Assembly (NCBI GenBank): GCA_050186685.1
Contig: JBFWYF010000124.1
Location: 1 to 11,787 of the forward strand
Length of the DNA stretch: 11,787 nucleotides
Origin: Pirellulaceae bacterium
GTDB lineage: Bacteria; Planctomycetota; Planctomycetia; Pirellulales; Pirellulaceae
Direction: 5' to 3'
Below are positions 1 to 11,787 of this stretch, in pieces. Below the pieces are notes generated by a model that ran no database searches, had not been told where the DNA came from, and saw nothing but the letters and a program-made list of their open reading frames with translations. Within the stretch, counting starts at the first letter, position 1. Every line of letters begins with the position of its first letter. The position numbers and the translations under genes are program-made.

Positions 1-1
1 G

Positions 2-2410
2 GGCGCGGGAGCCGAGGAGTTGTTGGAGCGCGTATCCGGTTCGATCGGCGTGGCGGTGCAGTCTGCGAATTACCGCACGCACCTCCAGAATCTGCTGCAG
101 GAGACCCAACAGCAGGCCGAAGAACTGCAGGTGCAGGGCGAGGAGCTGCGCGTGGCCAACGAAGAACTCGAGGAGCAGAGTCGCGCTCTCCAGGAATCGC
201 AAGTCCGTCTCGAGAACCAGCAGGCAGAGTTGGAACAGACGAACACGCAGTTGGAAGAACAAGCGCAAGAACTCGAGACCCAGCGCGACGACCTCAGCCG
301 GGCTCATGCCACGTTGGAACTGCGTGCTCGGGAACTCGAACAGGCGAGTCGTTTCAAGTCCGACTTTCTGGCCAACATGTCGCACGAGTTGCGGACGCCA
401 CTCAACTCGGCGCTTATCCTGGCTCGGTTGCTCGCTGATAACCGGGAAGGAAATCTGAGCGACGAACAGGTGAAGTACGCGGAAACGATACTCATGGCCG
501 GCAATGATCTGTTGGCGCTGATCAACGACGTACTCGATCTCTCGAAAATCGAGGCCGGCCGGATGGAGATGCGGCCAGAACCCCTGCCGATAGCACAGCT
601 GGTCGACGATCTCAGCCGTGCCTTTCGGCCGCAGGCCGAGGCGAAGGGGCTGTCGTTCCGCGCGTCGGTGGATGCGTCCTGTCCGGAATCGATTGATACG
701 GATCAGCAGCGGCTGGAACAGGTGCTGAAGAACCTGCTCGCGAACAGCGTCAAATTCACGGAGCGGGGCGAAGTCTCATTGGAGATTCGCCGTGAAACGG
801 GCGACCGGCTGGCACTGGCCGTGCGCGATACGGGCATCGGTATTCCGGCTCACCAGCATGAGCTGATATTCGAGGCTTTCCGCCAGGCAGATGGTAATGT
901 CAATCGGCGACATGGCGGCACCGGCCTGGGCTTATCGATATGCCGGGAACTGGTCCGTCTGCTGGGTGGCGAGATCCGGCTGCAGAGTGAACCGGGGCAC
1001 GGCAGCACGTTTACCGTGGTGATACCGAGGGCATACGATCCGGCACGCGTGCGGGGCCGTGACGCGCCGGTATCGTCGGTCGTAGCGGAGCAGGTTCCGC
1101 CCAGCGTCCGACCGCCGGTCGCTCCTCCAGCGCCGGCGACGCCGGCCTCCACGACGGTCACGTCCCCGCCACCGGCAACCGGCGCAGCCGTAGCCGACGA
1201 TCGGGAGCGGCTCGCTTGGGGCGGGCGAGTCCTCCTGATCGTCGAGGACGACGAGCCGTTTGCTCGCATCCTGTACGATCTCGGACATGAACTGGGATTT
1301 CAGTGCGTTGTGGCGTCGACCGCGGAAGAGGGCCTGGCTGCCGTGGCACGGCACCCGCCCAGTGCCGTGCTCCTGGATGTCGGCTTACCCGATCAGTCCG
1401 GGCTGTCGGTCCTCGATCGGCTGAAGCACGACGGACGCACCCGCCACATCCCGGTGCACGTCATTTCCGCGGCGGACCACAGTGAGACCGCGCGGGCCCT
1501 GGGAGCTATCGGCCATCTGATGAAGCCGGTAGAACGGGAAACGCTGATTGAAACGATCCAGGGCTTCGAAGCACGGCTCGCGCAGCGCGTACGCCGGGTC
1601 TTGATTGTCGAGGACGACCCGGTACAGCGCGACGGGTTGGGCAAACTGCTCGGTTCGCGTGACGTCGAGACGGTCGGCGTAAGCAGCGCGGCCGAATGCC
1701 TGGCACTGCTGCGCGATTCGACGTTCGACTGCATGGTCCTCGACTTGTCCTTGCCCGACACCACCGGTTACACGCTCCTGGAGACACTTAGCCGCGAGGA
1801 CGCGTATTCTTTTCCGCCGGTGATCGTGTACACCGGTCGTGATTTGTCGGCCGACGAAGAGCAGCGACTGCGACGCTATTCCCGTTCCATCATCATCAAG
1901 GGCGCCAAATCGCCAGAACGGCTGTTGGACGAAGTCACGCTGTTCTTGCACCAGGTCGTGGCGGATTTGCCGCCCGAACAGCAGCGGATGATCCGAAAAT
2001 CCCGCAGCCGGGACGCGGCCCTCGAAGGTCGCCGCATCCTTATCGTCGAGGATGACGTGCGCAATGTGTTCGCGCTGACCAGCATTCTCGAGCCGCGCGG
2101 GGCGAACATTCAAATTGCTCGGAATGGCCGCGAGGCGTTGGAATTGCTGAGCCGGTGCGCGGACGATCCCGATCGGCGAGTCGATCTCGTGCTGATGGAC
2201 GTCATGATGCCCGAAATGGACGGCCTGGCGGCCACGCGCGAGATTCGCAAACATCCCGCCTGGAAGAAACTGCCCGTCCTGATGCTGACCGCCAAGGCGA
2301 TGAAAGACGACCAGGAACAGTGCCTTGCGGCCGGCGCCAATGACTACATGGCCAAGCCGCTGGACGTCGAGAAACTGCTATCGCTCGTGCGTGTCTGGAT
2401 GCCCCGGTAG
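2..2410 (+). CDS. hybrid sensor histidine kinase, 5' partial (Glu/Gln-rich coiled coil - HisKA - HATPase_c - REC - REC - REC)
   Basis: The frame is open to the window edge with no upstream stop, and the track ORF 20..2410 starts at a TTG that is probably internal. H-box SHELRTPLN has His at nt 383-385. N-box LKNLLANSVKFT, G1 RDTGIGI and G2 GGTGLGLSI are present. Three receiver domains follow, with acceptor Asp in LLDVGLPD (nt ~1376), VLDLSLPD (~1742) and LMDVMMPEMDG (~2198) and conserved Lys in MKP, IKGAK and AKP. A Pro/Ala/Thr-rich linker lies at nt ~1081-1200. Stop TAG is at 2408-2410. Confidence 0.9.
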   Translation, partial: GAGAEELLERVSGSIGVAVQSANYRTHLQNLLQETQQQAEELQVQGEELRVANEELEEQSRALQESQVRLENQQAELEQTNTQLEEQAQELETQRDDLSRAHATLELRARELEQASRFKSDFLANMSHELRTPLNSALILARLLADNREGNLSDEQVKYAETILMAGNDLLALINDVLDLSKIEAGRMEMRPEPLPIAQLVDDLSRAFRPQAEAKGLSFRASVDASCPESIDTDQQRLEQVLKNLLANSVKFTERGEVSLEIRRETGDRLALAVRDTGIGIPAHQHELIFEAFRQADGNVNRRHGGTGLGLSICRELVRLLGGEIRLQSEPGHGSTFTVVIPRAYDPARVRGRDAPVSSVVAEQVPPSVRPPVAPPAPATPASTTVTSPPPATGAAVADDRERLAWGGRVLLIVEDDEPFARILYDLGHELGFQCVVASTAEEGLAAVARHPPSAVLLDVGLPDQSGLSVLDRLKHDGRTRHIPVHVISAADHSETARALGAIGHLMKPVERETLIETIQGFEARLAQRVRRVLIVEDDPVQRDGLGKLLGSRDVETVGVSSAAECLALLRDSTFDCMVLDLSLPDTTGYTLLETLSREDAYSFPPVIVYTGRDLSADEEQRLRRYSRSIIIKGAKSPERLLDEVTLFLHQVVADLPPEQQRMIRKSRSRDAALEGRRILIVEDDVRNVFALTSILEPRGANIQIARNGREALELLSRCADDPDRRVDLVLMDVMMPEMDGLAATREIRKHPAWKKLPVLMLTAKAMKDDQEQCLAAGANDYMAKPLDVEKLLSLVRVWMPR

Positions 2411-2422
2411 TGAGTCGACGCC

Positions 2423-3250
2423 ATGCACGAAAAAATCGAGGACATCGAGGTCCAACTGCTGCTGGAGGCGATCTTCCGCCGATACCATTACGACTTCCGT
2501 GGATACTCGCTGGCCTCCCTGAAACGCCGGCTGACCCAGGCACGCGACCGCTACCACTGCCGCACGCTTTCCGACTTGCAGGAACGTGTACTGCACGATC
2601 CCCAGATGTTTCCCCGGCTGTTGTCGTACCTGACGGTGCAGGTGAGTGATCTGTTCCGCGACCCGGCCTATTTCCGCGCCCTGCGTTCGCAGGTTATCCC
2701 GCATTTGCGCACTTACCCTTCGTTGAAGATCTGGGTGGCGGGCTGTGGAGCGGGCGAGGAGGTCTACTCGCTCGCCATTCTTTTTCGGGAAGAAGGGCTC
2801 GAGGAGCGCACGCTTTTCTACGGTACCGATATCAACCCGAACTCGCTGCGGAAGGCCGAGGCGGGTGTCTTTGAACTGGATCGCATCCCGCTCTTTACGG
2901 AGAATCACCGCAGGTCAGGTGGCAAGTCCTCCTTGTCCGATTACTATACCGCGGCCTACGGCGCCGCGGTTTTCGACAAGAGTCTGCGGCGGCAGGTCGT
3001 GTTTTCGGACCACAGCCTGGTGTCCGATGAGGTGTTCGCCGAAGTACAACTGGTCTCGTGCCGCAACGTGCTGATCTATTTCGATCGTGAGCTGCAGGAC
3101 CGAGCCATTGGGCTATTTAAGGATTCATTGATCCGCAGAGGATTTCTGGGGCTCGGCGCGAAGGAGAGCCTTCGATTTGCGAGGCATGCGGATGCCTTTC
3201 TTGAATTTGCGCGCGACGAACGGATTTACCAGAAGCGAGGAGACGTGTAA
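2423..3250 (+). CDS. cheR: chemotaxis-type protein-glutamate O-methyltransferase CheR
   Basis: 275 aa. The AdoMet-binding signature IWVAGCGAGEEVYSLAILF matches the CheR motif (V/I)WSAGCSTGEEPYS(L/I)A. The N-terminal helical CheR_N-like region is EDIEVQLLLEAIFRRYHYDFRGYS. ATG lies 12 nt after the upstream kinase stop. Confidence 0.9.
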   Translation: MHEKIEDIEVQLLLEAIFRRYHYDFRGYSLASLKRRLTQARDRYHCRTLSDLQERVLHDPQMFPRLLSYLTVQVSDLFRDPAYFRALRSQVIPHLRTYPSLKIWVAGCGAGEEVYSLAILFREEGLEERTLFYGTDINPNSLRKAEAGVFELDRIPLFTENHRRSGGKSSLSDYYTAAYGAAVFDKSLRRQVVFSDHSLVSDEVFAEVQLVSCRNVLIYFDRELQDRAIGLFKDSLIRRGFLGLGAKESLRFARHADAFLEFARDERIYQKRGDV

Positions 3251-3825
3251 TGGAGCGGCGTGCGGAAGCCGTCGTCATGGGAGCTTCGGTGGGAGCCATC
3301 GACGCGCTCTCCATGATTCTCCCCGTCTTGCCGCACGATTTCGCGCTCCCCCTGATGATCGTTGTGCATGTACCGCCCGACAAGAACAACAAGATGGTCG
3401 AACTGTTCCGCAGTAAATGCCAGCTGCCCGTGCGGGAGGCCGAGGACAAAGAACCTATCCGAGGCGGCACAATTTACTTCGCGCCACCTGACTACCACTT
3501 GCTCGTCGAGACAGATCGGCGATTATCGTTGTCGAGCGAGGAGCCGGTGCAATACTCTCGCCCGTCCGTTGACGTCCTGTTCGAGACGGCTGTCGACGCC
3601 TATGGTTCGGGGCTGGTGGGCGTGCTGTTGACGGGCGCCAACGACGATGGTGCCCGGGGAATGGGGTTGGTGCACGAGGCGGGTGGCATTGCCGTGGCGC
3701 AGCGCCCGGATCTGGCGTATGCCCCGACGATGCCCCGCGCGGCGCTGGATCTTTGCCCCGGAATCCGCGCGCTGACCCTGCAGGAAATCGGGCAGCTGTT
3801 ACGGGAGGTGAGCACATCGCAATGA
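3250..3825 (+). CDS. cheB: CheB-type protein-glutamate methylesterase, catalytic domain only (no receiver domain)
   Basis: 191 aa. The catalytic triad context matches CheB_methylest: Ser in VMGASVGAIDAL (GASTGG-like), His in IVVHVPPD (QHMPPGF-like) and Asp in GANDDGARGM. No N-terminal REC is present. The start overlaps the cheR stop (TAATG at 3248-3252). Confidence 0.85.
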   Translation: MERRAEAVVMGASVGAIDALSMILPVLPHDFALPLMIVVHVPPDKNNKMVELFRSKCQLPVREAEDKEPIRGGTIYFAPPDYHLLVETDRRLSLSSEEPVQYSRPSVDVLFETAVDAYGSGLVGVLLTGANDDGARGMGLVHEAGGIAVAQRPDLAYAPTMPRAALDLCPGIRALTLQEIGQLLREVSTSQ

Positions 3826-5435
3826 CGGACCTGCCGACGCAACCGGTCTTTTTTCTTCTTGTCGATGACCTGGAGGAAAACCTGCTGGCGCTGGAAGCCC
3901 TGCTGCGGCGGGACGGCTTGGTCCTGCTCCAGGCGCGGTCCGGTCGCGATGCGTTGGAGTTGCTGCTGCGCCACGACATTGCGTTGGCGCTGGTCGACGT
4001 CCGCATGCCGGATATGGACGGTTTTGAGCTGGCGGAGCTGATGCGCGGCTCGGAACGTACCCGGCGAGTGCCCATCATCTTCCTGACGGCCGGAGCGCCG
4101 AGCCTCCAGCGCCGCTTTCGCGGTTATGAGGCGGGCGCCGTCGACTTCCTGCAAAAGCCCATCGAACCGGACATTCTCCGCAGCAAGGCAGACGTATTTT
4201 TTGAGCTGTACCGACAGCGGCAGGAGGTGGCGCGGCAACGAGACGAACTGAAGGCCGTCGTGTCCGAGAACGCTCGACTGCTGCAGGAAAGCCGTCAGGC
4301 GACGGCCGCATTGCGGGAAGCGGACCGGCGAAAAGACGAATTCCTCGCCACCTTGGCCCACGAGCTGCGCAACCCGCTTGCGCCGATCCTCAACGCGATT
4401 CAGTTGCTGGGCGTTCCAGATCTGGCGCCTGCCGAAGCGGACGAACTGCGGCAGATGATCGAACGTCAGGTCAAGCACATGGTGCGACTGGTCGACGATC
4501 TGCTCGACTTAAGCCGGATCACGCAGAGCAAAATCAAGTTGCAACGGCACCGCGTCGCCGTGAGCGAAATCGTTCAGAACGCGATTGAAACCAGCCGCCC
4601 GCTGCTGTCGGCCGGACACCATGAGGTCGAAGTCCAGATCCCGGACGAGCCGCTGATCGTACTGGCCGACACGGTGCGTCTCACACAGGTTCTGGCCAAC
4701 CTCTTGAACAATGCAGCCAAGTTTACGCCCGAACGGGGACGTATTTGCGTGGCGGCGGAACGGCACGGACAGGAAATCGCTTTGAGCGTGATCGATAGCG
4801 GGTTGGGCATCCCTCCGGATATGCTGGGTAAGGTCTTCGAGATGTTCACGCAGGTGAACCAGCACCTGATAGGCTCGCAGGGCGGGTTGGGAATCGGCCT
4901 GTCGCTCGTGAAAGGGCTCGTCCAACTGCATGGGGGAACGGTGGAAGTGTACAGCGAAGGTGAGGGACGAGGCGCGCGGTTCACCGTGCGCCTGCCAGTG
5001 GCCGAAACGGCGACGGCTGCGGCACCAGCGCCAGCAAAGGCCGCGGTGGCACATGCGGTCCACCAACGCCGGATCCTGGTGATCGACGACAATCAGGACG
5101 CGGCCAACAGCCTCGCCCTGCTGCTAAAGATGTGCGGGCATACGGTCGCGACTGCGCACAGCGGCGAAGCGGGACTCGCACAGGCCATAGCTTTTCGCCC
5201 GCAGGTCGTCCTGCTCGACCTGGGCATGCCCGGCATGGATGGTTTCGAGACCGCCCGGCGGTTGCGTGAGTTGGACGAAGCACGCGACTCCGTGCTCGTC
5301 GCGCTGACTGGCTGGGGGCAGGACGAAGACCGCCGTCGCACGTCAGCAGTCGGTTTCGAGCGGCACTTGGTGAAGCCCGTCGACTTGAGTGGGCTGCAGA
5401 AGCTGCTCGCAAGCCTCGGCCCGGGGCCACGCTGA
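3822..5435 (+). CDS. hybrid histidine kinase / response regulator (REC - coiled coil - HisKA - HATPase_c - REC)
   Basis: ATG 3822-3824 overlaps the cheB stop TGA 3823-3825 (ATGA). The N-terminal REC has acceptor Asp in LVDVRMPDMDG (nt ~3996) and Lys in QKP. H-box LATLAHELRNPL has His at ~nt 4359. ATP-lid motifs DSGLGIP and GGLGIGLSLV are present. The C-terminal REC runs RRILVIDDN...LLDLGMPGMDG...LVKP. The earlier in-frame ATG at 3753 was rejected because it would overlap cheB by 73 nt and add a non-domain leader. Confidence 0.8.
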   Translation: MTDLPTQPVFFLLVDDLEENLLALEALLRRDGLVLLQARSGRDALELLLRHDIALALVDVRMPDMDGFELAELMRGSERTRRVPIIFLTAGAPSLQRRFRGYEAGAVDFLQKPIEPDILRSKADVFFELYRQRQEVARQRDELKAVVSENARLLQESRQATAALREADRRKDEFLATLAHELRNPLAPILNAIQLLGVPDLAPAEADELRQMIERQVKHMVRLVDDLLDLSRITQSKIKLQRHRVAVSEIVQNAIETSRPLLSAGHHEVEVQIPDEPLIVLADTVRLTQVLANLLNNAAKFTPERGRICVAAERHGQEIALSVIDSGLGIPPDMLGKVFEMFTQVNQHLIGSQGGLGIGLSLVKGLVQLHGGTVEVYSEGEGRGARFTVRLPVAETATAAAPAPAKAAVAHAVHQRRILVIDDNQDAANSLALLLKMCGHTVATAHSGEAGLAQAIAFRPQVVLLDLGMPGMDGFETARRLRELDEARDSVLVALTGWGQDEDRRRTSAVGFERHLVKPVDLSGLQKLLASLGPGPR

Positions 5436-5442
5436 GTGTGGG

Positions 5443-5470
5443 ACGACGCTCCGCGGTCGTGGACTTTTTC
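5443..5470 (+). terminator. candidate intrinsic terminator of the HK-cheR-cheB-HK operon
   Basis: The local GC hairpin at 5443-5460 is followed by ggaCTTTTTC (T5 at 5465-5469). The stem is short (5-6 bp), so this is weak to moderate. Confidence 0.3.
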
Positions 5471-5516
5471 TATGCACCCCATGTCCTCGCGAGAAGACAC
5501 GACGGCGGAGCGTCGT
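5443..5516. repeat. pair of inverted, individually palindromic ~20-nt elements separated by a 36-nt spacer
   Basis: 5443-5454 pairs with 5505-5516 (12 bp) and 5456-5461 pairs with 5498-5503 (6 bp), with a single G/G mismatch. Each arm is itself a hairpin: acgacg-ctccg(g)-cgtcgt, and acgacg-gcggag-cgtcgt at 5499-5516. The pair starts 7 nt after the kinase stop (5435) and lies ~90 nt upstream of the caspase ATG. Confidence 0.6.
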
Positions 5517-5605
5517 GCCGCACTGGTTGAGTGCCACGCTCGCCCGGCGCTGCAGCTCGCAAAGGAAACAGGACGGATCCCTGCTCACAACCTGGAGCCC
5601 TGTTT

Positions 5606-7570
5606 ATGGCGGACCGTGCCCTGCTGACCGGCATCAACCAGTACAAATACATCAGTCATCTGCGCGGATGCGTCAATGATGTGCGTATGGTGGAGCGGCT
5701 GCTGATCGAAGTGTTCGGCTTCGCCGCGGCGAACATCAAGACACTGATCGACAGCCAGGTGACGAAGGAACGCATTACGAAGGAGTGGGCCCGCATGCTC
5801 AAGGACGTGAAGCGCGGTGACCGCATCGTGTTTCACTTTTCCGGTCACGGGTCCCATATCGCGGACAAGGATGGCGACGAGGAGGACGGTGCCGACGAAC
5901 TGCTCTGCCTCTACGATATGGATTTCGATGACGAACGGACGTACCTGCTGGACGATGATTTGCGAAAGCTCACCGAGCAAGTTCCAGACAGTGGGTATTT
6001 AACTGTCTTGCTCGACAGCTGCCACTCCGGCACAGCCACGCGCATGATGCTGGCCCCGACCGCGGCGCGCGAAGTACGATTCACCGGTCCGCCGCCGCTG
6101 GTCGACCTGCAGGCCAGTCTCGCTCGGCTGGAACGATCGAGTGGCAGCTCGCGATCGCTGGCCGGCCGAGACGCGGACGAAGTCGTCACCCGCCTGCTGG
6201 CGCCTCGATCGGCGTTGGACGAGCGGAACACAGTCCTGGCACGTTTCGTCGAGCCGCCGCCGCACGTGTCTGCGGCTTTACGGCGCGGGGGTATCCGCAA
6301 GCAGGTCCGTGCCGCCATGGCGGAAGCGCGCCAAGGCGAGCGGATGAACCACGTGCTGCTGGCCGGCAGCGAAGCGACCCAGACATCGGCCGATGCTTTC
6401 ATCGAAGGGAACTATCACGGAGCCTTCAGTTTCTACCTCGACAGGACCGTGCGCGAGGAGGGTCGGAGCATCGATCACCAGAAGCTGATCCGTCGCCTGC
6501 GCGATGCATTGGCGGCGGAACGTTTCAGTCAGACTCCGCAACTCGAACCGGCCGAAACCACCGGCCCCTTGCTGTTGAGAGCTCTTCCCGATCCGGACCG
6601 CGTTACAGGGGCCCCTGCCCTGTCGCAAACGGACGTCCTGAAGATTCTGCTTGAAATCCGGGATCTGCTGGCGGGACGAGCCGATGACCGACTCGTCGGT
6701 AGCCGGGCCACGGGGCGGCGGGCCATCGTCTATGTCCATGGTATCTGCCGGCACGACGCCAGTTTTGCCGATCCCTGGTGGCAGGCATTGCGGCCGCACC
6801 TCGCCGCGCCGCTCCGGCAGGAACTCGAGCGGAATCGTCATCCGGTCGTCTGGAGTGATCTGGTTACTCCCGAACGGCAGCGTTCCATCGCGGCGGATTC
6901 CCGGCAGGCGGCCGCCGAACACGAACTTGCCACCCTGTTACGGGAAGTGCTGGAGGACCGCGCCGTGCGCGAGACATTGACCGCGGTCGAACCGCAGGCC
7001 TCGGACTGCAACCCGGTCGCCACGCGTGCCGTTCAAGACCGCGTTCTGCTCGACATTCCGGGTCTCAATTGCATCGACGACTTCGTCAAGTACCTGCTGG
7101 ACGACTCCGTCCGACGCGCCGTCCAGAAACGATTTCTCGACGTGGCCGGGCCCTTGCTGCGCGACGGCGTGGAACTGGAAGTGGTCAGCCACAGCTGGGG
7201 AACCGTCGTGGCCTTCGAGGCATTGCGGACGCTCGATGGCGAGCAGCTTGCCGGGAGGGTCCGGAACTGGTTCACGGTGGGCGCGGCCCTGTCGATCGTG
7301 ACGGTCCAGCGGAGACTCGTGCCCGCCGACGGGCGCAGGCCTCGGCACGTCTCCCGGTGGCTCAATCTGGACGCCCGCGGCGACATCGTGGGAGGGCCGC
7401 TGGCCAACGCCTTCCAGGTGACGCAGGAGTTCCTGAACCTTGACCCCACCACGTGCCGAACCATCTGGAGTCTGGTCGAACCGACTTGTGCCCATTCGTC
7501 CTACTTCCACGCGTCCAACCTCGCTGTGAATCGAGGTATATTCGCGGCGCAAATTCAAGGCGGCGGATGA
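5606..7570 (+). CDS. orthocaspase (peptidase C14 caspase-like, p20+p10) fused to a C-terminal lipase-like alpha/beta-hydrolase domain
   Basis: 654 aa from the first ATG. The ORF opens at GTG 5531, but the caspase fold begins right at MADRALLTGINQY and GGAG lies 9 nt upstream of ATG 5606. Caspase dyad: His in HFSGHGS (nt 5846-5848) and Cys in LDSCHSG (nt 6020-6022). A p10-like segment LLAGSEATQTSADAFIEGNYHGAFSFYL is present. C-terminal domain: oxyanion-type IVYVHGI (His nt 6737-6739), nucleophile elbow VVSHSWGT (Ser nt 7193-7195), then NLDARGD and CAHSSYFH as candidate Asp/His, in Ser-Asp-His order. Stop TGA is at 7568-7570. Confidence 0.85.
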   Translation: MADRALLTGINQYKYISHLRGCVNDVRMVERLLIEVFGFAAANIKTLIDSQVTKERITKEWARMLKDVKRGDRIVFHFSGHGSHIADKDGDEEDGADELLCLYDMDFDDERTYLLDDDLRKLTEQVPDSGYLTVLLDSCHSGTATRMMLAPTAAREVRFTGPPPLVDLQASLARLERSSGSSRSLAGRDADEVVTRLLAPRSALDERNTVLARFVEPPPHVSAALRRGGIRKQVRAAMAEARQGERMNHVLLAGSEATQTSADAFIEGNYHGAFSFYLDRTVREEGRSIDHQKLIRRLRDALAAERFSQTPQLEPAETTGPLLLRALPDPDRVTGAPALSQTDVLKILLEIRDLLAGRADDRLVGSRATGRRAIVYVHGICRHDASFADPWWQALRPHLAAPLRQELERNRHPVVWSDLVTPERQRSIAADSRQAAAEHELATLLREVLEDRAVRETLTAVEPQASDCNPVATRAVQDRVLLDIPGLNCIDDFVKYLLDDSVRRAVQKRFLDVAGPLLRDGVELEVVSHSWGTVVAFEALRTLDGEQLAGRVRNWFTVGAALSIVTVQRRLVPADGRRPRHVSRWLNLDARGDIVGGPLANAFQVTQEFLNLDPTTCRTIWSLVEPTCAHSSYFHASNLAVNRGIFAAQIQGGG

Positions 7571-7890
7571 GCAGCCCCCTCGCGGAAGACGCCGATAGGG
7601 AAGCGTGCAACGACGCAAGCTGTTGTTCCGGCCCCCAGAGCGTGTTCCGCTGACGGGAGCTGCTGGCTCCACCGGCGCCATACTTCGCCGTCAGCGTCCA
7701 GAACCCCCGATACGGCGGTCTCGAGCGCCCAGGCGATGCTCGCCTCGATGCCTGCCTCGATCTGCGCCCTGAAGTCCGCCGTCGCTCCGCTGACTTGGAC
7801 GTCCTGGCCGGCGATCTTCAACGACTCCGGCAGCATGCCAATGGCCGTCTGGCAAAAGTGCCACTGGATGGCGGCCAATTTTACTTTCAC
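7555..7890 (-). CDS. hypothetical small protein (111 aa), convergent with and overlapping the 3' end of the caspase gene by 16 nt
   Basis: GTG start is rc of cac at 7888-7890, and an internal ATG at 7834-7836 would give 93 aa. GC3 for the first ~80 codons, counted by hand from the sequence, is ~82% against ~65% overall GC, which is a coding-like skew. The last ~30 codons are less convincing. No recognisable domain and no SD motif were found. Confidence 0.45.
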   Translation of the reverse strand: MKVKLAAIQWHFCQTAIGMLPESLKIAGQDVQVSGATADFRAQIEAGIEASIAWALETAVSGVLDADGEVWRRWSQQLPSAEHALGAGTTACVVARFPIGVFREGAAHPPP

Positions 7891-8005
7891 CCGGTCCGCC
7901 GGTGGCGGAAGAGCTTCCCGCTGAGTACGCGGGGGGACTCATGTGGGTACGACGTTCACTGCGACTCCAGCGGCCTCTGCGGGCCCCCCGCCGTCTTGAA
8001 AAGTA

Positions 8006-8035
8006 GCCCGTGGCTCGATTTGTCAAGCCACGGGC
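8006..8035 (-). terminator. rho-independent terminator candidate for the slipin gene
   Basis: A perfect 10-bp GC-rich inverted repeat, GCCCGTGGCT (8006-8015) and AGCCACGGGC (8026-8035), has a 10-nt loop. It lies 5 nt downstream of the slipin stop (8040-8042). On the minus strand it is followed by UACUUUUCAAG (rc of 7995-8005). Confidence 0.5.
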
Positions 8036-8039
8036 CTGG

Positions 8040-9146
8040 TCACAACAGATTGATCACGCGGTCGGCGAGTCCCTTTTCGCCGAGCACAATCTTCAGGTTG
8101 CCGGCCGACGCGATCTTTTCCAGGACTTCCAGTTCCCGCAACCGCATCAGCGTCGGATTGTCGGCCAGCAGCTTGGCCGTGTTGGCCTGGCTGCGCATGG
8201 CGGCCGTTTCCTCGCGCCGCGAGATGAGGTTGGCCTCGGCGGCCTTCTTGGCCTCCGTGACCTTGTTCATCAAGTCCTTCATATCGCCCGGCAGGATCAC
8301 GTCCCGGATACCCACTGATACGATTTCCAGACCCAGTTCGCCGGCGCGGCGGCGTACCGCCTGCTCGATCTCCTGAGCAACCGCGTCCTTTTCGGTCAGG
8401 AAGACGTCGAGTTCGCGTACGCCGATGACGGCTCGCAGTGCCAACTGCGTCTCGCGGTACAGTGCCTGGCGGACGTCGTCCGTCGAGCTGACTGCCTTCC
8501 GCGCGTCGGCGATGCGGTAAGTGACCAGTGCGTTCATGCGCAGGCTGACCTTGTCGTGGGTCATGATTTCCTGACCACTGACGTCGGCTGCGCAATCCCG
8601 CATGTCCACTTCCACAACTCGCGCGTCCGCCGCGCCCTTCCAGAACGCGTACAGGCCCGGCCGTAGCGTGTCCACAAACCGTCCGTCGATGAACAGGACG
8701 CCGGCGTGGTCGCGTTCGACTTTGCAGATGTCCAGCAGCTGCTTCGCCATGTGCGTCGCCGCAATAACCTTTAGATCCTCGTGCTCGAATCGCACCTGGC
8801 GAGCGTCGAGTACCTCGACGCGCACTTCGCGGACACCTTGCCAGTAGGCGTACAGGCCCGGCCCCAGCAGGTGCGTGAACCGACCGTCGATCCACACCAG
8901 ACCCCGCTGGTGGTCCTTCAAATCCAGGACGATCGCACGGTCCTTCAGCACGCGCGATTTGACGATCATGTCGAGTTTTTCGTGCGGGAACCAGGCATCG
9001 CGCAGGTTGGCGACGTCGACACGGACCTTCATCCACGGGTCGAACAGCCAGTGCCGTCCTTCGCCCAGCAAGCCCTGGAATTCCCCGTCACGGAAGTACA
9101 AACCCGTCTCGTAGCTGCGAATCTTGATGTGCTTGAACAGGATCAT
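8040..9146 (-). CDS. SPFH/band-7 (slipin-family) protein with three N-terminal 67-aa tandem repeats
   Basis: 369 aa from ATG (rc of 9144-9146). A strong SD GGGAGGG (rc of 9154-9160) lies 7 nt upstream. The track ORF extends to 9407, but that N-terminal extension is non-domain and crosses the RBS. The SPFH core runs from ~aa 190-369 (THDKVSLRMNALVTYRI ... GNLKIVLGEK). Repeats at aa ~5-71, 72-138 and 139-205 are marked by GEGRHWLF, GPGLYAYW and RPGLYAFW. Confidence 0.85.
   Translation of the reverse strand: MILFKHIKIRSYETGLYFRDGEFQGLLGEGRHWLFDPWMKVRVDVANLRDAWFPHEKLDMIVKSRVLKDRAIVLDLKDHQRGLVWIDGRFTHLLGPGLYAYWQGVREVRVEVLDARQVRFEHEDLKVIAATHMAKQLLDICKVERDHAGVLFIDGRFVDTLRPGLYAFWKGAADARVVEVDMRDCAADVSGQEIMTHDKVSLRMNALVTYRIADARKAVSSTDDVRQALYRETQLALRAVIGVRELDVFLTEKDAVAQEIEQAVRRRAGELGLEIVSVGIRDVILPGDMKDLMNKVTEAKKAAEANLISRREETAAMRSQANTAKLLADNPTLMRLRELEVLEKIASAGNLKIVLGEKGLADRVINLL
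8532..9134 (-). repeat. intragenic tandem triplication (3 x 201 bp, 67 codons) in the slipin N-terminal region
   Basis: A 16/16 identical core gcgtacaggcccggcc occurs at 8647-8662 and 8848-8863, exactly 201 nt apart. ccgtcgat recurs downstream in both copies. The protein repeats carry G(L/V)x(F/W)xDG(R/E)F..L..PGLYA(Y/F)W motifs. Confidence 0.6.
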
Positions 9147-9153
9147 GGGAACG

Positions 9154-9160
9154 CCCTCCC
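9154..9160 (-). promoter_or_regulatory. ribosome-binding site of the slipin gene
   Basis: The minus strand reads AAGGGAGGGCGTTCCC-ATG, with GGGAGGG 7 nt from the start codon. Confidence 0.5.
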
Positions 9161-9197
9161 TTCTGTTGCCAGGAACTCGTGCTGTCGCGGGAGCACG

Positions 9198-9233
9198 AAA
9201 AAACCCGGTGCCACTTTCGCGTGCGACACCGGG
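9198..9233 (-). promoter_or_regulatory. terminator-like hairpin plus U6 tract inside the slipin 5' leader (possible attenuator)
   Basis: The minus strand reads CCCGGTG-(16 nt)-CACCGGG-TTTTTT (stems rc of 9227-9233 and 9204-9210, U-tract rc of 9198-9203). It is 52 nt upstream of the slipin ATG. A second hairpin (rc of 9177-9198, 7-bp stem, 8-nt loop) lies between it and the RBS. No gene upstream within ~400 nt on this strand could use it as an ordinary terminator. Confidence 0.35.
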
Positions 9234-9493
9234 TTCGATACGATCCGCGCAGTCTCGGTCGAACGTCAGCAGTGCCATCTGAATGTAGGGGTATGCGCGC
9301 CTGTGCAGGCCGGCAAACGGTTGCCGCTTTCTTCGATAGGCGAGTTCGAATGTAAGGTCATCGCAGAATCCCTTGTTGTGGGGGTGGCGCGTTCTCGCCC
9401 AATGCATGTCTGAAGTGTAAGAGGGGCGCAGCTACCGAAAGGTTCGCTGGACGGTGCTGTCGCACGGAGGACCGCGTTGAGGTTCGTGTCAGA

Positions 9494-9522
9494 TTTGACA
9501 TTCCCCTCGGAGGCGTTATCTT
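9494..9522 (+). promoter_or_regulatory. candidate sigma70-like promoter for the downstream secreted-protein gene
   Basis: TTGACA (9494-9499), a 17-nt spacer, then TATCTT (9517-9522). It sits in the lower-GC divergent intergenic region, ~100 nt upstream of ATG 9630. Confidence 0.3.
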
Positions 9523-9629
9523 CAGGGCCCCAAACGGAAACCGACTTCTCGAGATTCCGACAGGTCAAGAAAATGCTTCTCTCACTCCACCGCGGCAATG
9601 TGGCACGCACCTGCGGCAGACGCCGCAAT

Positions 9630-11787
9630 ATGGCAGTTCGATATCGCAGGCTGCGGTTCGATGTACTTGAACCTCGCTTGTCCCTGGCCGCCGACTTGGC
9701 GCCGGCGCAGTTTAATGGCTGGTCCGACAGCATCGTTATTTCGAACAAGACAGGCACCAATACCGACGATGTGCCTATCACGAACGCCGACACGGTTTAT
9801 TTGGATATAGGCTGGGGCAATTTTGGCGATGTCACGGTTCCGGCCAATACTTTTGCCACTACCCTGTTATTGGACGGTATACCCGTTAGTACGTTCATCA
9901 CACCGTTCTCTTTGTCCCCGTTTACGGGAGCCGTCGTGCAAGACCTCGGCCTGGGCCAGCTAAGCCTAGGCGTCCATACCGTGTCGTTAGTCGTCGACGT
10001 GAATAATTCTGTGGCAGAGGGAGACGAAGCGAACAACACGTATGAGCGGTCATTCACAGTGGTTGTGCCGCCAACCGAGGACTTTGGTGACGCTCCCACC
10101 GCGACTCAGTCAGGGTTCTTATCGAGCTACCCGACGACGTTGCTGGACAACGGCGCGCGGCACACGCCGCTGGTCGGGTTCCGGTTAGGGACCGCGCTGG
10201 ATGCGGATGCGAACGGACAGCCCAATCCGACAGCCGATTTGGACGACCTGACGGGCTCGACCGATGACGAAGACGGTGTCACCCTCAACGCGGATTTCAT
10301 GATCGGCGCTGCGTCCGCAGTTCAGGTCTTCGTTACGAATACGGCAGGCGTCGCCAATCCCTTTCTCGATGCCTGGATCGACTTTAATCGCGATGGCGAC
10401 TGGAGCGACGTTAATGAACGGGTGTATGGCGGTCCGGTTGTGGCGGGAAACAACATCTTGTCGATCGACGTACCCGGAAGTTCCTCGGTGGGGACGACGT
10501 ATGCCCGCTTCCGACTGCATAACGGCACTACGCCATTAGGAGTCACAGGGCAATTTGCGGATGGTGAGGTAGAAGATTATCAGGTTAGTCTCGTCCGGCC
10601 GGGCACCTGGATCGACGAGGGCCCTCGACCCACACAAAACGCGCAAGTGGAAAACGTCCTGCCCGCCGATCAGGTTACCGGTGCGATTCATACCGTGGTC
10701 GCTCATCCGACCAATCCCGATATCCTGTATATCGGCGCTGTCAATGGAGGCATTTGGAAGACGACCAATGCTACAGCGGTCAGACCGAACTGGACGCCTC
10801 AGGCCGATTTCCTGAACTCGCTGTCCATTGGGGCTATGGCGTTCGACGCGACAGATGTCACACACAACACGCTCGTAGCTGGGACAGCTTTCTACAGCAG
10901 CTTTGGTGGACTGGGCGGCGGACGCGGCGCGGTGTATCGCACCACCGACGGAGGGACCACCTGGATCAGTCCCGGCAGCATTGGTATTCCCGCGACGGGC
11001 GAGAACATTTCGGGCATCGCGGCGCGCGGGAACACGATCGTCGCTACCTCCTCCGGCCCTGGTGGGGGAGTCTTTCGCAGCCTGGACGGAGGTACGACAT
11101 TTACAGGCATCAATGCCGCCGATTTTGTTGTTGGCAACAACTTCACGGATCTCATATTAGATCCCAGCGATGTGAGTGGTCAGCGCCTGTACGCGGCCTC
11201 CGAAGGATCCGGTGGCCCGGGTGGAATCTATCGTTCCGACGATTTCGGTGCGACCTGGACCAAGATTACCGGGCCCGATATTGATGCCGACATGCACCAG
11301 GTACTCGAGACGCTTAATTCGAATAACATTGAAATGGCCGTTCACCCCACGACGGGTCGGCTGTACGTTGCGGTGCTAGTCCTCGGCCAACCGCGTGGCA
11401 TTTTTTTCTCGAACACGGCAGCTACGGCAACGCCAGCCTGGACGCGAATGGACGTCCCTGTGCTGCCGGTCACTGCGGCTGGCACTGCCATCACGGAGGC
11501 GAGCAATACGACACCGATCCAAGTCACGTCCACAAGTCATGGTCTGCCGAATGGCGCATTTGTGTTCGTCAACGGGGTGGCCGGAAACACCGCGGCAAAT
11601 GGCATTTATCGTATTGCGGTGATCAATGCCGATACATTCTCGCTGGAGGGAAGCGCCGGGAACGGATTGTACAGCGGTGGTGGAACCTGGACGCGCGTTA
11701 CGGGCCCCAATCCCACGGCGAAAGAGGTAGAAGAGACGGGAGCGCAAGGTCGGATTCATTTCTCAATCACCGTGGATCCCACGAACG
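9630..11787 (+). CDS. large secreted-type protein, 3' partial: N-terminal RRLRFDVLEPRLSLAA motif, CARDB-like domain, GEVED-like domain, BNR/Asp-box repeat region
   Basis: It is absent from the ORF track because it has no stop before the window end. The frame (codon starts at multiples of 3) is open from the stop at 9411-9413 to 11787, as verified by hand at six separate places. Candidate starts are ATG 9630 (MAVRYRRLRFDVLEPRLSLAADLAP) and ATG 9573. The CARDB-like signature is LVVDVNNSVAEGDEANNTYERSFTVVV. DFGDAPT ... GEVEDYQVSL is GEVED-like. Asp-box repeats YRTTDGGTTW, FRSLDGGTTF and YRSDDFGATW are present. The antisense ORFs 9797..11759 listed in the track are shadows of this gene. Confidence 0.8.
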   Translation, partial: MAVRYRRLRFDVLEPRLSLAADLAPAQFNGWSDSIVISNKTGTNTDDVPITNADTVYLDIGWGNFGDVTVPANTFATTLLLDGIPVSTFITPFSLSPFTGAVVQDLGLGQLSLGVHTVSLVVDVNNSVAEGDEANNTYERSFTVVVPPTEDFGDAPTATQSGFLSSYPTTLLDNGARHTPLVGFRLGTALDADANGQPNPTADLDDLTGSTDDEDGVTLNADFMIGAASAVQVFVTNTAGVANPFLDAWIDFNRDGDWSDVNERVYGGPVVAGNNILSIDVPGSSSVGTTYARFRLHNGTTPLGVTGQFADGEVEDYQVSLVRPGTWIDEGPRPTQNAQVENVLPADQVTGAIHTVVAHPTNPDILYIGAVNGGIWKTTNATAVRPNWTPQADFLNSLSIGAMAFDATDVTHNTLVAGTAFYSSFGGLGGGRGAVYRTTDGGTTWISPGSIGIPATGENISGIAARGNTIVATSSGPGGGVFRSLDGGTTFTGINAADFVVGNNFTDLILDPSDVSGQRLYAASEGSGGPGGIYRSDDFGATWTKITGPDIDADMHQVLETLNSNNIEMAVHPTTGRLYVAVLVLGQPRGIFFSNTAATATPAWTRMDVPVLPVTAAGTAITEASNTTPIQVTSTSHGLPNGAFVFVNGVAGNTAANGIYRIAVINADTFSLEGSAGNGLYSGGGTWTRVTGPNPTAKEVEETGAQGRIHFSITVDPTN

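Follow-up and report, generated by a model that had tools for sequence, protein, structure and literature searches.

A planctomycete kinase-CheR-CheB-kinase cassette of the cfcABCD/bmsA type with a candidate methyl-accepting coiled coil in its first kinase

Introduction

In Pseudomonas putida KT2440, the cfcABCDE cluster encodes CfcA (PP_3761), a membrane hybrid kinase with a periplasmic CHASE-type domain, a GAF domain and three C-terminal receivers; CfcA is required, via His496, for the activity of the orphan diguanylate cyclase regulator CfcR, a REC-GGDEF/EAL protein, and no other receiver (REC) in the P. putida genome is as closely related to the CfcR REC as that of CfcD (PMC4951495; PMC6849547; bioRxiv 10.1101/2024.11.25.625174). 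The cfcB and cfcC genes form a CheR/CheB pair for which a role in chemotaxis was ruled out (PMC4951495). According to PMC8175716, which cites Lee et al. 2016, the bmsA cluster of P. alkylphenolica encodes, in this order, a CHASE3/GAF hybrid kinase, CheR, CheB and a hybrid kinase; it affects biofilm and motility. Here we describe a stretch of 11,787 nucleotides (nt) from a Pirellulaceae bacterium (Planctomycetota; assembly GCA_050186685.1, contig JBFWYF010000124.1, positions 1 to 11,787), referred to below as the window, which carries CheR and CheB genes between two kinase genes. This four-gene cassette is a planctomycete copy of the cfcABCD/bmsA-type module, already named and partly characterised in Pseudomonas, and as a further copy of that module the window on its own is ordinary.

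In textbooks, chemotaxis owes its memory to the reversible methylation of glutamates, a mechanism regarded as specific to chemoreceptors. The cassette puts the methylation enzymes of chemotaxis beside a class I sensor kinase, with 52-82% identity from Planctomycetota to Alphaproteobacteria, Verrucomicrobiota and Nitrospira. If these enzymes do tune the kinase, methylation-based sensory adaptation would extend to two-component systems controlling cyclic diguanylate monophosphate (c-di-GMP) and biofilm formation, which would account for hundreds of unexplained 'CheB/CheR' annotations outside che clusters. The candidate acceptor described below is clear, specific and short and therefore easily testable; the value of the locus lies in a precise and cheap experiment on a mechanistic question.

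Results and discussion

Two hybrid kinases, CheR and CheB are encoded by four coupled genes

Positions 2-5435 of the window hold four consecutive, translationally coupled genes on the forward strand, in the order 5'-truncated hybrid kinase (gene 1), CheR, CheB and second kinase (gene 4). Their features are as follows (aa, amino acids).

2..2410, forward strand: gene 1, 5'-truncated CfcA-type hybrid histidine kinase, 802 aa visible, coiled coil-HisKA-HATPase_c-three REC (Pfam)
83..301, forward strand: Glu/Gln-rich heptad coiled coil of gene 1 (aa 28-100), candidate methyl-accepting segment
356..1030, forward strand: kinase core of gene 1, HisKA at aa 119-186 and HATPase_c at aa 233-343
1226..2389, forward strand: three receiver domains of gene 1, at about aa 409-510, 531-636 and 677-796
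2423..3250, forward strand: CheR-type glutamate O-methyltransferase, 275 aa, CheR_N and S-adenosylmethionine (SAM)-binding domain
3250..3825, forward strand: CheB-type methylesterase, 191 aa, catalytic domain only (CheB_methylest)
3822..5435, forward strand: gene 4, CfcD-type kinase, 537 aa, REC-HisKA-HATPase_c-REC

The gene 1 frame is open from base 2 to the TAG at 2408-2410, and a 12-nt gap (2411-2422) separates it from the CheR ATG at 2423. The CheR stop overlaps the CheB start in a TAATG (3248-3252) and the CheB stop overlaps the gene 4 start in an ATGA (3822-3825). For gene 4 we took the ATG at 3822, as called on a 99.97% identical public contig, where the mechanical list of open reading frames (ORFs) gives a TTG at 3753; the ATG yields a -4 overlap, as in most related loci. 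An earlier note, made from the letters of the window alone, had described this coupling, and all of its coordinates and junctions held; domain scans likewise agreed with its placement of CheR and CheB between two hybrid histidine kinases. Both kinases possess an H-box His, an ATPase domain and a receiver with an acceptor Asp, the features of this class, and all five of their receivers retain the acidic pocket, acceptor Asp, Ser/Thr and Lys. A histidine phosphotransfer domain was found in neither protein. The Pfam scan and dedicated probes revealed no MCPsignal, CheW or CheA-type domain anywhere in the window (MCP, methyl-accepting chemotaxis protein).

The public contig, from the Pirellulaceae metagenome-assembled genome GCA_050248895.1 (9.9 kb), corresponds to window positions 493-10388 and encodes an identical CheR. 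It begins 492 bases inside the window and adds no sequence upstream of gene 1, so that the N-terminus of gene 1 had to be deduced from orthologues.

The cfc cluster resembles the window in its gene order: a hybrid kinase with three receivers (of CHASE3/GAF type in cfc, and probably so in the window, judging by orthologues), CheR, CheB and a REC-containing kinase. The cfcA primers published in PMC4951495 encode ESARYRQ and ANMS[H]EL, which match motifs that are conserved in this family and flank the coiled coil. The two differ in that the window comes from Pirellulaceae (Planctomycetota) and contains neither a fifth gene nor a CfcR-type REC-GGDEF-EAL regulator. The bmsA cluster shares gene order and, judging by full-length orthologues of gene 1, kinase architecture with the window and is linked to biofilm and motility, not to chemotaxis.

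With canonical chemoreceptor adaptation the cassette shares the same enzyme families with intact active sites, and a candidate acceptor that is a glutamate-pair heptad helix beside a kinase-control module. Unlike canonical systems, it has no MCP signalling domain, CheA or CheW, its CheB lacks a receiver, and its candidate acceptor, which departs from the MCP site consensus, would be a parallel coiled coil within a class I kinase. Wsp-type systems (the alternative cellular function, ACF, class) are similar in that methylation enzymes are tied to surface and biofilm c-di-GMP signalling and not to swimming. Wsp itself is composed of an MCP, CheW and a CheA-type kinase; the chemosensory systems covered in reviews are built on these components, and none of them occurs in the window.

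Gene 1 orthologues carry CHASE3 and GAF domains ahead of the kinase core

The H-box of gene 1 (ANMSHELRTPLN, with His128 at nt 383-385) was invariant among 67 orthologues. Each of the three receivers showed the acidic pair, the Ser/Thr, the Lys and an acceptor Asp, in the contexts LLDVGLP, VLDLSLP and LMDVMMP. The region upstream of the H-box is a Glu/Gln-rich helical segment which in Pfam matched generic coiled-coil models only.

Searching with the gene 1 protein returned thousands of relatives, of which the best 120 were looked at. Apart from the identical partial copy on GCA_050248895.1, these were 67-73% identical over the whole query. They were mostly 1030-1180 aa long, with a few shorter or partial, and came largely from Planctomycetota (Gemmata, Singulisphaera, Fimbriiglobus, Schlesneria, Zavarzinella). 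Ahead of the kinase core, CHASE3 was present in most of them and GAF in all but the partial copy; the full-length orthologues (~1150 aa, ~70% identical) all had both. Direct scanning of the Singulisphaera orthologue (locus L002) placed CHASE3 at 49-184, GAF at 243-376 and HisKA at 476-543, followed by HATPase and three REC domains; its CHASE3 faintly resembles the 4HB_MCP_1 ligand-binding bundle. HAMP, PAS and MCPsignal, which the earlier note had proposed to look for on the full-length protein, were absent from this orthologue even at E <= 10. The 802 C-terminal residues visible in the window fit the plan TM-CHASE3-TM-GAF-HisKA-HATPase-3xREC (TM, transmembrane segment), the N-terminus lying outside the window, and we infer that the missing part is TM-CHASE3-TM-GAF as in the orthologues. 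The suggestion that the upstream part could carry an MCP-like sensor was not borne out by the full-length orthologues, which have CHASE3 and GAF and no MCP signalling domain.

CheR and CheB retain their catalytic residues

The CheR protein scored 35.8 bits against PF03705 and 118.5 bits against PF01739 (cut-off 27 each). Its best solved-structure relative was Bacillus subtilis CheR 5FTW (E = 1.4e-24), with which its intact motifs AGCGAGEE, TDI and CRNVLIYF align. CheB matched PF01339 with 172 bits (E = 1e-50), and its triad Ser13/His40/Asp133 aligned with Ser164/His190/Asp286 of Salmonella CheB 1A2O. Judged by motifs and triad, both enzymes are catalytically intact.

CheB was found to be the methylesterase catalytic domain alone, as first noted from the letters: CheB_methylest is the only domain of the 191-aa protein, which begins 7 residues ahead of it and has no receiver. 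The median CheB length was 195 aa across 62 related loci. Removal of its receiver activates the CheB esterase, and precise adaptation in Escherichia coli is independent of CheB phosphorylation. Adaptation via conformation-dependent site access is thus compatible with a CheB that lacks the receiver.

The N-terminal receiver of gene 4 is PleD-like

Gene 4 begins with a REC fused to a kinase, in agreement with the earlier description. A PleD-like REC (aa 12-122) with its acceptor Asp in LVDVRMP is followed by HisKA (171-235; phospho-His at LAHELRNPL), HATPase_c (283-394) and a second REC (about 416-520). We considered whether the N-terminal REC is the detached receiver of CheB, as had been hinted, and rejected this: its best solved-structure match was PleD REC1 (E = 1e-21, the next family following at 1e-15), and no CheB receiver was among the 60 best matches listed. 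In many Alphaproteobacteria the same REC (~70% identical) is joined to an HWE/HisKA_2-type core instead of HisKA/HATPase/REC. As the REC is retained even where the kinase core is exchanged, it represents the conserved part of gene 4 and is likely a phosphoryl acceptor from kinase 1. HWE-type fourth genes, ~350-400 aa in total, were seen at L084 (9572-10633) and also at L011, L013, L034, L046, L049, L054 and L058.

The four genes are conserved as a unit and lack chemotaxis partners

A search with the 191-aa CheB, taking one genome per species, gave 225 confirmed relatives, and 80 loci were kept. They belong to Planctomycetota, many Alphaproteobacteria (Rhizobium, Mesorhizobium, Ancylobacter, Bosea, Caulobacter, Asticcacaulis and sphingomonads), Verrucomicrobiota and Nitrospira. 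By tblastn, kinase 1, CheR, CheB and kinase 2 were found in the same order in essentially all 80, the kinase being 59-71%, CheR 68-82% and CheB 52-71% identical. When the 1245 ORFs of these loci were clustered, only the four cassette genes recurred, the next largest cluster being present in 8 loci. Start/stop overlaps of 4 nt were counted at 66 of 78 CheR-CheB, 47 of 77 CheB-kinase 2 and 42 of 73 kinase 1-CheR junctions, counts in which the choice of start is biased toward the nearest start codon. The arrangement is thus conserved far beyond chance.

Before use, the probes chosen to detect CheW, CheA and MCP signalling domains were validated against Pfam. Neither CheA nor CheW was detected within +/-10 kb at the 80 related loci (~1.5 Mb). 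MCP genes occurred at 3 of the 80, about 9-10 kb off and at the locus edges; these matches also served as a positive control. The absence of MCP, CheA and CheW from the operon, claimed for the window at the outset, therefore extends to homologous cassettes for CheA and CheW. An upstream MCP/CheA/CheW set or an MCP-type N-terminus had been named in advance as the findings that would overturn the non-chemotaxis reading; the related loci and the orthologues lack both. Collectively, these data indicated that the four genes form a unit conserved across at least four phyla, to which no chemoreceptor, CheA or CheW belongs.

A copy of the cassette also lies on a conjugative plasmid, pAt of Agrobacterium vitis (L084). 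This copy and the high cross-phylum identity together suggest horizontal spread combined with strong constraint.

The coiled coil of the first kinase is a candidate methyl acceptor

In the coiled coil of gene 1, every seventh residue from L42 to L98 is a Leu, with the register unbroken. Glutamate pairs occur at aa 40/41, 47/48, 54/55, 57/58 and 85/86, the first three directly preceding a heptad Leu. The segment aa 28-100 was near-invariant in the 67 orthologues (LLEETQRQSEELQxQSEELRVSNEELEEQSRALKESQARLEQQQAELEQTNSQLEEQAQxLExQRDDL). In its core, 55% of columns were at least 95% conserved, against 5% in CHASE3, 7% in GAF, 6% in the inter-domain linkers and 41% in the ATPase domain. The coiled coil is conserved as strongly as the catalytic domains.

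AlphaFold2 predictions based on 25 orthologues gave a single helix over aa 2-146, with a predicted local distance difference test score (pLDDT) >90 over aa 40-110. The predicted helix passes straight into helix 1 of the dimerization and histidine phosphotransfer (DHp) domain, which carries the phospho-accepting His128. A helical hairpin like that of the MCP methylation helices was also considered and was rejected, since the model is one uninterrupted helix and the Leu register is unbroken. The orthologue at L058 (5608-9150) carries an exact 28-residue deletion, NEELEEQS...AELEQTN becoming NEELEQTN. This loss of exactly four heptads is expected for a continuous coiled coil, and it provides a natural length variant in which several candidate sites are gone and the register is kept.

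The three-heptad motif [DE]E[LM] was found in 65 of 78 kinase-1-type ORFs versus 0 of 1167 other ORFs of the related loci. The motif-negative ORFs comprised single-residue variants, an orthologue with the 28-residue deletion, one coiled-coil region without read-through and three unlinked paralogues. In two Nitrospira paralogues that are unlinked to CheR/CheB, the Leu heptads are kept and TEL and KEL replace two of the three EE-L units. These paralogues (L068, 14885-20518, reverse strand, 1877 aa; L080, 15978-20138, reverse strand, 1386 aa) are encoded on the strand opposite to the cassette, at a distance of a few kb; their coiled coil is similar (TELQAQQKELQQTNEEL), with most glutamate pairs lost.

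A similar coiled coil follows CheR in CheB-CheR fusion sensors

Among plasmid records, 212 carried CheB-CheR-coiled coil-PAS-output proteins (at least 80% query coverage), which are annotated as 'CheR family methyltransferase' or 'chemotaxis protein CheB'. All seven fusions fetched (from Sphingomonas, Azospirillum, Methylocystis, Rhizobium etli p42f, Ralstonia, Burkholderia and Shewanella) had 3-7 heptads of [ST]xNEEL right after the CheR domain, for example ...NEELKSSNEEMMSMNEELQSTNEELSTVNDEL.... The xNEEL heptad motif was not found in one canonical che locus used as a control. These fusions (e.g. R. etli p42f RHE_RS26810) share with the cassette a non-chemotaxis CheB and CheR, a coiled coil with xNEEL heptads and an output by a kinase or EAL domain. 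They differ from the window, where CheR and CheB are separate genes and the coiled coil lies inside a CHASE3-GAF HisKA-type kinase; in the fusions it precedes PAS/HWE modules. The window CheB is ~28% identical to the fusion CheB domain.

The fusion on a Shewanella sp. LC6 plasmid (L090, 2474 to the locus end) has seven NEEL heptads and is annotated as EAL domain-containing, not as a kinase. This annotation implies that CheB/CheR and the coiled coil are also coupled directly to c-di-GMP turnover domains. At two loci, a separate gene of ~330-340 aa annotated as CheB stands directly upstream of the fusion (L087, 1336-2358, R. etli p42f; L089, 1375-2364, Burkholderia stagnalis), so that these loci carry two esterase domains.

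Judged by sequence, non-chemotaxis CheB/CheR thus occur together with the EEL/NEEL coiled coil in two independent architectures, one with the coiled coil in cis and one with it in trans. This pairing is the strongest available argument that the coiled coil is the substrate.

CheR and CheB may tune the first kinase through its coiled coil

Comparative genomics and Pseudomonas genetics support a non-chemotaxis, methylation-linked two-component module. That it is not a chemotaxis pathway, as the earlier note had proposed, is borne out by the lack of CheA and CheW at 80 loci and by the cfc system, in which CheR/CheB were excluded from chemotaxis and a diguanylate cyclase regulator depends on the first kinase for its activity. 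Taking all evidence together, the explanation that we somewhat favour is a self-contained cfcABCD/bmsA-type module in which CheR and CheB tune the first kinase via coiled-coil glutamates.

According to this proposal, CheR and CheB would reversibly methylate glutamates of the heptad 'EEL' coiled coil, which is predicted to be continuous with the DHp helix of the first kinase, and charge neutralisation at these glutamates would alter the balance between kinase and phosphatase activity. In this way a two-component system would acquire slow, covalent adaptation or gain control of the kind that chemoreceptors owe to methylation. Feedback would arise from conformation-dependent site access and not from CheB phosphorylation, since this CheB has no receiver. 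By analogy with P. putida, the probable destinations of the phosphoryl groups are the receivers of the first kinase itself, the PleD-like receiver of gene 4 and an unlinked REC-diguanylate cyclase regulator, and this regulator may control c-di-GMP and biofilm behaviour.

The earlier note had taken the first kinase for the only plausible methylation substrate in the operon; we give roughly even odds to its coiled coil being the methyl acceptor. A wider proposal would make the first kinase a 'methyl-accepting histidine kinase', with CheR/CheB adaptation that dispenses with MCP, CheA and CheW, and the xEEL/NEEL coiled coil the in-cis acceptor in CheB-CheR fusions; this we hold tentatively, at slightly less than an even chance.

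Several points weigh against a methylated coiled coil and against the transfer from Pseudomonas. The canonical MCP methylation consensus is [ASTG][ASTG]xx[EQ][EQ]xx[ASTG][ASTG], with heptad spacing. The glutamate pairs are heptad-spaced but miss this consensus, the flanking small residues fitting partly (e.g. Q-[VTA]-Q-S-E-E-L-R-V-S). Interchange of Glu and Gln, the signature of deamidation, was not seen in 185 orthologues; as Glu and Gln columns are almost invariant there, this test is uninformative. A parallel two-helix coiled coil differs in geometry from the antiparallel four-helix bundle usual for CheR and CheB, and the motif likeness between cassette kinases and fusions could be convergent. 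The literature searched held no report of methylation for the window kinase or its relatives. The N-terminus of the Pirellulaceae copy of gene 1 lies outside the window, and homology to the Pseudomonas cluster is judged from identical architecture, the order of the genes and short peptides encoded by primers, not from direct alignment. Finally, P. putida mutants in the other cfc genes stayed crinkly, according to an unpublished remark of the authors (PMC4951495), which implies that any effect of methylation is modulatory at most under those conditions.

Among the alternatives, the one that survives best, although we consider it unlikely, is that CheR and CheB modify another protein of the circuit: the second kinase, one of the five receivers or an unlinked response regulator. 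PMC8546571 reports that CheR methylates the response regulator PhoP in Salmonella. Within the cassette, the N-terminal REC is the most strongly retained part of gene 4, at ~70% identity despite the core swap, and the departure of the gene 1 coiled coil from the MCP consensus points the same way. Against this, no glutamate-pair heptads were found in the gene 4 linker, the heptad EE-L motif is restricted to the first kinase within the loci, and the same motif travels with CheB-CheR in fusions of differing outputs.

Less probable still is that CheR and CheB are an extra adaptation set for chemoreceptors encoded elsewhere, the kinases merely regulating them or being co-expressed. In its favour, both enzymes are bona fide members of their families with intact active sites. 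However, conservation of the four coupled genes is strict, and no MCP, CheA or CheW belongs to the unit at 80 loci (+/-10 kb) in four phyla; CheB lacks the receiver that couples to CheA; and the P. putida homologues were reported inactive in chemotaxis (PMC4951495). That CheR and CheB are catalytically idle remnants, kept as scaffolds or being lost, is very improbable: other cfc genes gave no phenotype in the P. putida crinkly-colony assay (PMC4951495), but the intact catalytic triad and SAM motifs, the cross-phylum identity of 52-82% and the conserved overlapping start and stop codons indicate strong purifying selection on what would be active enzymes.

Other features of the window

The rest of the window contains the following features.

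5443..5470, forward strand: weak terminator-like hairpin and T-run directly 3' of the gene 4 stop (z-score -1.7)
5531-7570, forward strand: 679-aa protein with an N-terminal caspase domain (Peptidase_C14), PADLOC 'caspase' match E = 1e-17
7555-7890, reverse strand: 111-aa ORF with no family match, following the SPFH gene
8040-9407, reverse strand: SPFH/Band 7 protein with a long N-terminal extension, called in a shorter 368-aa form on the public contig
9630 to beyond 11787, forward strand: large open frame of at least 719 aa with GEVED and CARDB-like domains and BNR/sortilin-like repeats

The hairpin is suggestive of a possible operon end. Rfam, tRNA and tandem-repeat scans of the window all came back empty. 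The caspase-like and SPFH genes were considered as members of the module and rejected, as they are not conserved neighbours in related loci; nor is the GEVED/CARDB gene a conserved neighbour of the cassette.

The 5531-7570 protein also showed a weak match to 'caspase, EACC1-associated type', and its C-terminal half of ~330 aa had no family match. On the Methylocystis plasmid (L086), too, an SPFH gene stands immediately 5' of the gene for the CheB-CheR fusion, which is probably a coincidence. The frame starting at 9630 has no stop inside the window and was therefore absent from the ORF list; it probably encodes a secreted or surface protein.

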